NCBI GenBank assembly: GCA_964590195.1
Contig: CAZPWJ010000015.1
Coordinates: 4,494-68,493 of the forward strand
Length of the DNA: 64,000 nt
Origin: an uncultured Rhodospirillaceae bacterium
Lineage (GTDB): Bacteria; Pseudomonadota; Alphaproteobacteria; GCA-2731375
Reading direction: 5' to 3'
Position 1 is the first letter of the stretch. The number at the start of each line of letters is the position of its first letter. A program made the translations under genes and the position numbers. The notes beneath the pieces were generated by a model. It had not been told where the DNA came from. It saw only the letters and a program-made list of their open reading frames with translations, and searched no databases. Of this stretch, positions 45,099 through 45,753 are shown one piece after another.

Positions 45099-45329
45099 TG
45101 ATGTTTCCCCTGAATTAAGCAAGGGAGTTGTAGCCGGCCCGCAACAGCCCGCAAGGCACATTTTGGTGATCGGATCGCCAGATGCCGCATCGTGCCTACC
45201 GCATCCCACAGCCATGCTTGCTGGCCGCCGCCTTCAAACCCCGGCTGCAGACGACCGCGCGGGCGGCCCAAATCACCAAGTCGGCGATCACCGAACTGCA
45301 AATCGTGCCGTTAAATATCTGAGACGAAA

Positions 45330-45343
45330 ATGACCATGGTCAA
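45330..45343 (+). promoter_or_regulatory. FNR/Dnr/NnrR-type box (aTGAC-CATG-GTCAA), likely the ancestral nirS promoter element
   Basis: 14-bp site containing the perfect 12-bp palindrome tgaccatggtca, about 60 bp upstream of ATG 45403. It has the same TTGAC-N4-GTCAA variant as the site at 53769. Confidence 0.45.
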
Positions 45344-45384
45344 GGACGGTTACTTCGGAGCTTCTAAGGTCTGCAATATTACGC

Positions 45385-45753
45385 GTGTTCTCGGGAGCGG
45401 AGATGTCTTTATCTTTTTCGATATTGTCTACTGGTGGGCTGGCCGCTGTTGCGCCGGCGTTCGGATCTATTTCCGGCCACACGGCGGATGCGCAATCTAT
45501 GGAAGATTTAAAGGAAGTTAAATCTGAATTTAGGCGCAAATATCAACCAAGGTTGGATGTGCGGCGCGACGAAATGTTAGAACAGGCGGGTGACGAAGTC
45601 TGGTTCTCTGTCTGGAATTCCGCCAGCCAGGAATCGACCATCGTCATCGTCGACGACAGGACCCGGAAGTTGAAACATGTCATCCGTGACAAGCGTCTGG
45701 TCACCCCGACCGGCAAGTTCAACTTTTACAATACGCGGAAGGACGTCTATTAA
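45385..45753 (+). pseudogene. nirS: nirS remnant: signal-peptide-like N-terminus fused to the last ~80 codons of cytochrome cd1 nitrite reductase
   Basis: The C-terminus ...[54 protein letters not shown] matches the conserved NirS C-terminal strand ([15 protein letters not shown]). It also aligns with the C-termini of nirN (KPSGKYNVFNKITL) and nirF (QKPSGIFLTARAN) in this window. Only ~290 bp separate it from the upstream convergent GST gene, so there is no room for the ~1.7-kb nirS body. The ORF sits in a locally AT-rich patch (45300..45560). Confidence 0.55.

Follow-up and report, generated by a model that had tools for sequence, protein, structure and literature searches.

To our knowledge, the only established client of heme d1 is the nitrite reductase NirS. 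Why, then, would a bacterium carry a full series of heme d1 genes behind little more than the two ends of nirS? The question is raised by a stretch of 64,000 nucleotides (nt) from an uncultured Rhodospirillaceae bacterium (GenBank assembly GCA_964590195.1, contig CAZPWJ010000015.1, positions 4,494 to 68,493 of the forward strand), which is called the window throughout and to which positions refer unless another sequence is named. A sequence-only reading of the window had proposed that nirS suffered a large internal deletion here while the heme d1 operon was retained, and alignment to full-length NirS bears this out by mapping one in-frame gap. The short open reading frame that is left (mini-ORF; 45403..45753, plus strand) is very probably a relic of nirS, situated at the ancestral place of that gene in a nir cluster of the Paracoccus type.

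Homology of the mini-ORF to both ends of NirS

The open frame on the plus strand starts with a GTG and runs from 45385 to 45753 (122 codons). An ATG within it, at 45403, is preceded five nt upstream by the Shine-Dalgarno sequence GGGAG (45393..45397, plus strand) and gives an ORF of 116 codons. This ATG was chosen by all gene callers in the public assemblies, which report a product of 116 amino acids (aa), and it is likely the better start.

The relatives used for comparison come from a genome scan with one genome per species (185,579 species genomes), from which the best 80 matches were taken. Among the matches listed are four Rhodospirillaceae metagenome-assembled genomes (MAGs; L006 to L009), all with a nirS of full length (582-583 aa) and, behind it, the same nirE-nirN genes. 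The flanks of the window share 92-97.5% nt identity with L006, in which nirS is intact, and 81-93% with L007. At this closeness the window and L006 may fall into one species cluster, which would explain why the source genome is not among the matches listed.

That the ORF ends in the C-terminus of NirS, as had been noticed before, is confirmed by matches in Pfam and in the Protein Data Bank (PDB). The Pfam family Cytochrom_D1 aligned only with its profile positions 311-368 of 368 (E 2.3e-13), over residues 53-117 of the 122-aa translation. The last 57 residues of the cd1 nitrite reductases of Paracoccus and Pseudomonas in the PDB correspond to ORF residues 60-116 (E ~2e-21); in the cd1 enzyme of Paracoccus pantotrophus these are residues 511-567. 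NirF and NirN, both intact in the window, share the Cytochrom_D1 family with the relic. The relic itself is of the NirS type, being 93-96% identical to the NirS C-termini of the four MAGs versus ~27% to the C-terminus of NirN.

The N-terminus had been described as signal-peptide-like. A signal peptide is indeed present, but the description understates the homology, for ORF residues 1-61 align without a gap to NirS residues 1-61 of L006-L009 and are thus the homologue of the NirS signal peptide together with the N-terminal arm. ORF residues 62-116 pair with NirS residues 529-583. Against the 583-aa NirS, the protein alignment contains a single gap of 467 columns (NirS residues 62-528) without a change of frame, so that the earlier estimate of about 1.4 kb of missing coding sequence can be made exact: 467 of the 583 codons, or 1401 bp, are gone. 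The relic thus has a 5' part (45403..45585, plus strand), consisting of codons 1-61 with the degenerate signal peptide and N-terminal arm, and a 3' part (45586..45753, plus strand), consisting of codons 62-116 and the stop codon, which encodes the last strands of the d1 propeller.

The CAGCH heme c motif, at residues 87-91 in the relatives, falls within the deleted block, and no cytochrome c domain was matched by Pfam in the mini-ORF. What defines a working NirS, a cytochrome c domain with CXXCH and a complete eight-bladed d1 propeller (PF02239, ~368 positions), is therefore missing: the former is gone and the latter is incomplete. With the heme c site gone and hardly any of the d1 propeller left, the product cannot be a nitrite reductase. 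The locus nevertheless shows its descent from nirS by homology at both ends and by its position directly upstream of nirE, and it is a gene relic in that domains essential in the intact orthologues of close relatives have been lost. Single-sequence AlphaFold2 prediction gave no confident fold for the relic (mean pLDDT 44.6), which is weak evidence either way.

Three deletions at the locus

Codons 1-61 were joined to codons 529-583 by the loss of 1401 bp in frame, at a short CGGG microhomology. The junction reads GAACA|GGCGGGTGAC (45583..45590, plus strand), and CGGG is common to both parental sites, which in L006 are GAACAACCGGGCAGC on the 5' side and AACCTGGCGGGTGAC on the 3' side. Blocks of blastn similarity to the relatives stop at window positions 45585-45590 and resume at 45585-45586.

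Further DNA has been lost upstream. In L007 and L183, nirS is divergently preceded by a GST-family gene, nirX (ApbE-like) and nirI (NosR-like), the order in L183 being GST-ApbE-NosR/NirI-nirS. Two segments of L007 are missing from the window, namely 5077-7608, which holds nirX and the 3' part of nirI, and 7695-8337, which holds the 5' part of nirI and some intergenic DNA. Between these two deletions 86 bp of nirI are left (45225..45310, minus strand); blastn matches them to L006 7626-7711 at 83.7% and to L007 7609-7694 at 75.6%. In L007, nirI is an ORF of 736 aa (5987..8197, minus strand) that encloses the segment matching this 86-bp relic. With three deletions in all, ~4.6 kb has gone, in a pattern of stepwise erosion. 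A 46-aa ORF is called in all assemblies at 45182-45322, on the strand opposite to the nirI relic and without a family match; it is probably spurious.

The GST-family gene itself is present (44175..45098, minus strand; Pfam GST_N_3/GST_C_2) and has 307 aa in all assemblies. A longer ORF reaching to 45215 over-extends this gene. It had been taken to be convergent with the mini-ORF; the two are in fact divergent, head to head. Along its whole length the gene has 81-88% nt identity to L007, and it is native to this position: in L007 and L183 it is the neighbour of nirX. The loss of nirX and nirI, the NirS origin of the N-terminal part of the ORF and the native, divergent GST gene had all been missed by the sequence-only reading. 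The AT-rich patch that it had pointed out was found again: the G + C content of the local patch is 0.48-0.51, against 0.61 for the window. Foreign DNA was considered as its source and rejected, since the corresponding segments in the relatives are equally low at the same place (0.45-0.55); the patch is inherited. In L006, other genes (3239-5062) replace the GST gene between a HAD hydrolase gene and nirX, and the stretch from the HAD gene to nirS is for that reason variable within the clade. In contig L089, 56 bp are absent inside the GST gene (window 44508-44563), which gives a call of 288 aa instead of 307 aa.

Expression signals around the relic

The FNR/Dnr-type palindrome that had been reported at the right distance upstream of the ORF proved to be conserved before the intact nirS of four relatives. 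The palindrome (TGACCATGGTCA, 45331-45342) is contained in an FNR/NNR/Dnr-type box, ATGACCATGGTCAA (45330..45343, plus strand), that is part of the native nirS promoter. It belongs to ATGACCATGGTCAAGGA and is found at the same distance from the nirS start in the four relatives, with one or two base changes. Before the intact nirS of L006-L009 the box is conserved as ATGA(C/T)CA(C/T)GGTCAAGGA, in an intergenic region that is otherwise ~63% conserved. Written as ATGAC-CATG-GTCAA, it agrees with TTGAT-N4-ATCAA at 7 of the 10 half-site positions and with TTGAC-N4-GTCAA at 9 of 10. It is an inverted repeat centred 66 nt before the ATG and kept in five lineages, as would suit a predicted site of the FNR/CRP family.

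The pattern TGAY-N4-RTCAA has six matches in the window versus 1.24 expected. A predicted FNR box with the consensus TTGATGGGGATCAA (50051..50064, plus strand) lies within the 3' end of nirH, 130 nt before nirJ; it is conserved in L006, L007 and L008, is one base off in L009, and suggests an internal promoter. Another FNR/NNR-type box, TTGACGCGGGTCAA (53769..53782, plus strand), is located 54 nt before a hemerythrin-domain gene (53836-54429) and is conserved in L007 and L008. No gene for a regulator of such boxes was found in the 64-kb window.

Neither GGGAG nor the ATG varies among the five sequences (the window and L006-L009). Judged by these comparisons, the native FNR/NNR-type box, the Shine-Dalgarno sequence and the ATG of nirS survive upstream of the relic. 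Beyond the nirS stop codon, a hairpin is found in L006-L009 with energies of -27 to -31.7 kcal/mol (z -5.8 to -8.4) and without a T-run; in L009 the stem sequence is different and the pairing is still kept. Situated between nirS and nirE, the hairpin of these relatives may serve to end transcripts or as an attenuator. In the window it is degenerate (45760..45796, plus strand; -13.5 kcal/mol), with pair-breaking lineage-specific substitutions at 45763, 45768 and 45791. Three of the 10 differences from L006 in 45586-45990 are in the 32-nt stem of this hairpin and all three break a pair (p 0.037). Rfam detected no RNA family within 44900-46000, the hairpin included, and a promoter and terminator scan of the plus strand gave nothing exceeding chance.

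From these signals we infer how the locus would work. At low oxygen, or in the presence of nitric oxide (NO), an FNR-family regulator would start transcription at the old nirS promoter. Ribosomes would translate the short ORF up to the native nirS stop codon, and transcription would cross the weakened hairpin and run on into nirE and the genes downstream. The relic would now at most provide the heme d1 operon with a translated leader, in the manner of a natural non-polar deletion. In-frame non-polar deletions made in the laboratory likewise keep the start, the stop and the frame, and leave the downstream genes expressible; unlike those, the relic is natural and persists in a wild population across many samples, and its effect on the downstream genes is one that we infer.

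Divergence of the relic and the origin of its two parts

Over its 183 nt the 5' part is identical to L006 at 71.5% of positions. It carries 32 lineage-specific substitutions, counted at sites common to L006, L007 and L008, without an indel, and these are biased (GC>AT 16 vs AT>GC 6). Residues that are invariant in every full-length relative retrieved (KKH, PG, LRD) have been lost, and the equivalent of His17 of the Paracoccus enzyme has become Val; the tyrosine aligned with Tyr25 is kept. On the branch leading to the window, constraint on the 5' relic is clearly relaxed, the ratio of nonsynonymous to synonymous changes being 13.5:8.5 there versus 8:44 in the d1 genes (Fisher p 7e-5); omega of the 5' part is ~0.5, which is not clearly 1. 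Among the full-length NirS of the protein collection, the N-terminus nearest to the relic agrees with it at no more than 38 of 61 residues (62%), so that the divergence of the 5' part most likely arose in place. In the 3' part, only three of the last 159 coding nt differ from L006; two of these changes are nonsynonymous (A>T and K>R) and affect sites that are invariant in the relatives.

Some of these results weigh against the reading of the mini-ORF as a relic that decays in place and serves at most as a leader. The main objection concerns transcription. According to a passage in PMC3541799, citing Saunders et al. 1999, nir transcription in Paracoccus denitrificans requires NirI; if the promoter of the relic needs NirI too, its role as a leader is doubtful, since nirI is deleted here. 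Furthermore, divergence in the 3' part is one ninth of that in the 5' part (3/159 vs 32/183, Fisher p 5e-7). Neutral decay of one relic does not predict such a contrast across the junction; to explain it, one must assume either that nirS-carrying relatives later recombined with the locus in tracts ending at the junction, or that the 3' part is under some constraint. Finally, the frame has neither a stop codon nor a frameshift despite heavy divergence. By itself this last point is weak: in a simulation no stop codon was present after 32 substitutions with P ~0.27, and a random deletion preserves the frame one time in three, which makes the survival of the open frame suggestive but not significant alone.

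For the contrast between the two parts we favour homologous recombination with nirS-carrying relatives, with tracts ending where homology ends. Constraint at the DNA or RNA level protecting the 3' part was considered as well and explains the contrast poorly, because synonymous divergence among the relatives is only modestly lower in the last 54 codons (0.355) than elsewhere in nirS (0.35-0.58); recombination is preferred on this ground.

The junction might alternatively be a hybrid, formed by illegitimate recombination between an older, divergent nir locus and DNA from a relative with intact nirS, rather than by simple deletion in place. The 5' relic, the promoter and the nirI relic are indeed about equally far (70-84%) from L006 and from L007, unlike the flanks. 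We nonetheless consider this origin unlikely: with no full-length NirS N-terminus above 62% to the relic, a divergent donor is not in evidence, and the excess changes are AT-biased and located at invariant residues, as expected for decay in place.

Much less credible still is that the mini-ORF encodes a functional small secreted protein, of ~86 aa after cleavage of the signal peptide, newly recruited from the two termini of NirS. The open frame, the conserved Shine-Dalgarno sequence and ATG, the homologue of a signal peptide, the little-changed 3' part and the omega of ~0.5 in the 5' part would all fit such a protein. The two nonsynonymous changes of the 3' part, however, hit residues invariant in the relatives, the motifs conserved in all full-length relatives have been lost from the 5' part, and no confident fold was predicted. 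Moreover, the N-terminal part of the ORF was matched only by its own P0001 among 5.8 billion proteins, and no locus matching it was among the matches listed for the 185,579 species genomes. We know of no way in which a few strands of one propeller blade could fold alone.

Occurrence in independent assemblies

Contigs from several JGI and ENA assemblies, at least 24 of them, encode the exact 116-aa product, and the exact NirF protein was found on 16 contigs. Wherever the surroundings were shown the architecture was identical, with the GST gene, the 46-aa ORF and the 116-aa ORF followed by nirE-C-F-D-L-G-H-J-N, the CbiX-like gene and the hemerythrin-domain gene. Five assemblies agree in every base of an 801-bp region around the ORF, and JGI contig Ga0104999_1000381 matches the window at 100% identity. 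With this identity across assemblies, and with the substitutions of its own that the relic carries on both sides of the junction, there is practically no chance that the mini-ORF is an artefact of a collapsed or chimeric contig, and the assembly collapse for which the sequence-only reading had asked to check is excluded by the recurrence of the exact ORF on independent contigs.

The organism is an uncultured marine Rhodospirillaceae population of anoxic water columns; going by their labels only, the samples are presumably water-column metagenomes from the Cariaco Basin. Four independent short contigs end at 47425-47441, in nirF, and several others begin within the GST gene (44287-44988). These contig ends suggest that co-occurring strains or relatives break the assemblies.

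Another NirS C-terminal relic, of 91 aa (P0061), occurs on nine contigs (L176 7001-7276, also L177 and L178) that belong to another organism in the same SUTE22-1 samples, where it adjoins a peptidase U32 gene and a ferredoxin gene. Since it stands in a different organism of these samples, relics of nirS recur in these waters. As a second case of a relic with a d1 operon it was rejected, being an orphan without d1 genes nearby. P0003, in which nirS is split into 416 + 93 aa, was also rejected as an independent example, the split being most likely due to a frameshift.

Integrity of the heme d1 genes

All nine genes downstream of the relic lie on the plus strand. The first, nirE (45860..46675), encodes a uroporphyrinogen-III C-methyltransferase (Pfam TP_methylase, NCBIfam cobA/cysG C-terminal model) with 97% aa identity to L006 and an omega of 0.18. 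It is followed by nirC (46644..47015), for a c-type cytochrome of 123 aa (Pfam Cytochrome_CBB3), and by nirF (47026..48228), for a d1-type propeller protein (Pfam Cytochrom_D1, E 1e-111; omega 0.06 vs L006). The siroheme decarboxylase subunits are encoded by nirD (48233-48691), nirL (48688-49191), nirG (49191-49652) and nirH (49649-50134), which match NirdL-like_HTH and AsnC_trans_reg2 and have omega values of 0.03-0.11 vs L006. The radical SAM enzyme gene nirJ (50194..51420; Radical_SAM) has 96% aa identity to L007 and an omega of 0.04, and nirN (51404..52990), for a cytochrome c with a d1 propeller (Pfam Cytochrome_CBB3 and Cytochrom_D1, E 3e-112), has an omega of 0.09 vs L007.

The description of nirE-nirN as intact and translationally coupled holds: all nine genes are full length compared with the relatives, and their starts and stops overlap or are at most 10 nt apart, except for a gap of 59 nt before nirJ. 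Pairwise omega for nirE, F, L, G, H, J and N is 0.03-0.18 against the relatives, and a flanking housekeeping gene is in the same range. For nirE-C-F-D-L-G, with L007 as outgroup, the branch of the window has 44 synonymous and 8 nonsynonymous changes versus 50.5 and 8.5 on the branch of L006; this branch test gave no sign of relaxation of the d1 genes on the branch of the window. The heme d1 genes seem, on these substitution patterns, to have stayed under purifying selection. Drift like that of the 5' relic would be expected to give hundreds of replacements and many stop codons in them.

One variant was seen. ENA contig L182 (ERZ23498947 scaffold_3748), which covers window 45664-50170, is identical over 4.5 kb bar a 5-bp insertion (CGGGG) after 47510 that splits nirF into ORFs of 210 and 208 aa; at least ten other contigs are without it. 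Either part of the population truly carries this frameshift, or the insertion is an error of assembly.

Why heme d1 synthesis is kept

The sequence-only reading left a choice between an intact nirS elsewhere and another acceptor of heme d1. This choice omits a third option, namely that the operon is on its way out or that recombination masks its decay.

A second intact nirS, or another cd1-type enzyme, may be present elsewhere in the genome, in which case only a redundant, operon-linked copy was lost; we put this forward tentatively. It would account for the absence of relaxation on the branch of the window, for the lack of any inactivating mutation in 7.1 kb of the main population although the adjacent relic has diverged by ~17%, and for the retention of all three FNR-type boxes of the cluster. 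On the other hand, tblastn with the NirF and NirN of the window found no cd1-type gene beyond these two in the 64 kb. One nirS locus was present per relative MAG (four MAGs) in the best 80 genome matches, a point weakened by the incompleteness of MAGs, and nirI, which the same passage in PMC3541799 gives as required for nir transcription in Paracoccus, has been lost as well.

Possibly, and again we say so with reserve, the d1 genes are instead dispensable and not yet destroyed, their intactness being maintained by recombination with abundant nirS-carrying relatives while decay has begun in part. Identity to L006 leaps from ~71% to 97.5% exactly at the junction, as if donor tracts end with the homology. 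The insertion that splits nirF on contig L182 and the strong deletion bias of the locus, with its three deletions, would also agree with this, and partial denitrifiers dominate oxygen-deficient waters (PMC10359470). The nirF frameshift is found on one contig alone, however, with at least ten others covering the site without it; nine contiguous genes are intact beside a locus that shed 4.6 kb; and the nonsynonymous to synonymous ratio on the branch of the window equals that of the sister lineage.

We attach little likelihood to a population without any cd1 nitrite reductase in which heme d1 synthesis has long been kept under selection for a use other than NirS. The cofactor might serve a d1 client that has so far escaped recognition, or NirN itself, which when loaded with d1 could handle nitrite or NO at a low rate. 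In that case the open frame of the relic would be maintained solely to let the old nirS promoter drive the operon.

Comparison with known systems

The nir clusters of Paracoccus denitrificans and P. pantotrophus, in which nirX-nirI are divergent from nirS-E-C-F-D-L-G-H-J-N and transcription depends on NNR, have the same order of nirE-nirN as the window. As in Paracoccus, the nirS start has an FNR-family box before it, and the full arrangement, nirI and nirX included, is found in L006-L009 and L183. Unlike in Paracoccus, nirS of the window is without codons 62-528, nirX is gone, 86 bp of nirI are left, and a CbiX-like gene and a hemerythrin-domain gene follow nirN.

Near-identical (>99%) Rhodospirillaceae MAGs have been reported to differ in their denitrification genes (PMC10359470). 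Loss of single steps is common among the modular denitrifiers of oxygen-deficient marine waters, and the present locus resembles them in this; it differs from the usual modular loss in that the structural gene was lost and its dedicated cofactor pathway kept. The open-access papers searched gave no account of a nirS gene naturally deleted in frame beside a retained d1 operon, nor of comparable orphaned d1 operons.

The locus illustrates the stepwise loss of denitrification modules in anoxic seawater. A population without nirS, nirI and nirX, yet with nine selected cofactor genes, amounts to a natural experiment on other uses of heme d1, and the interest of the case hinges almost wholly on whether its genome is without any other cd1 enzyme. 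There is also a practical consequence. Because the relic keeps the most conserved 3' stretch of nirS and an above-threshold Cytochrom_D1 match, surveys that use marker genes or hidden Markov models can score it as a nitrite reductase. If it is miscounted as nirS, the denitrifying capacity of such populations is overestimated, and surveys of gene presence would miss the loss.

Other genes in the window

The CbiX-like chelatase gene after nirN (52947..53732, plus strand; Pfam CbiX) has an uncertain start and is also called from 53025. The 64 kb hold no nor, nos or nirK gene. The rest of the window consists of a cobalamin biosynthesis cluster, a peptide ABC transporter, TauD-type dioxygenases and housekeeping genes. 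The cobalamin cluster (5871-27208) comprises genes for CbtA, a CobT-type phosphoribosyltransferase, CobB/CobQ amidotransferases, CbiD, CobK, several precorrin methyltransferases, CbiG, CobH, CbiX, CobD, CobO, CobN, CobW and an aminotransferase. Upstream of an FGE-sulfatase gene, an ORF at 40096-41346 (minus strand) has a weak Cytochrome_P460 annotation in the public calls. This ORF contains internal DNA repeats, and segments of L006 and L007 match it at several offsets in 40622-41019.

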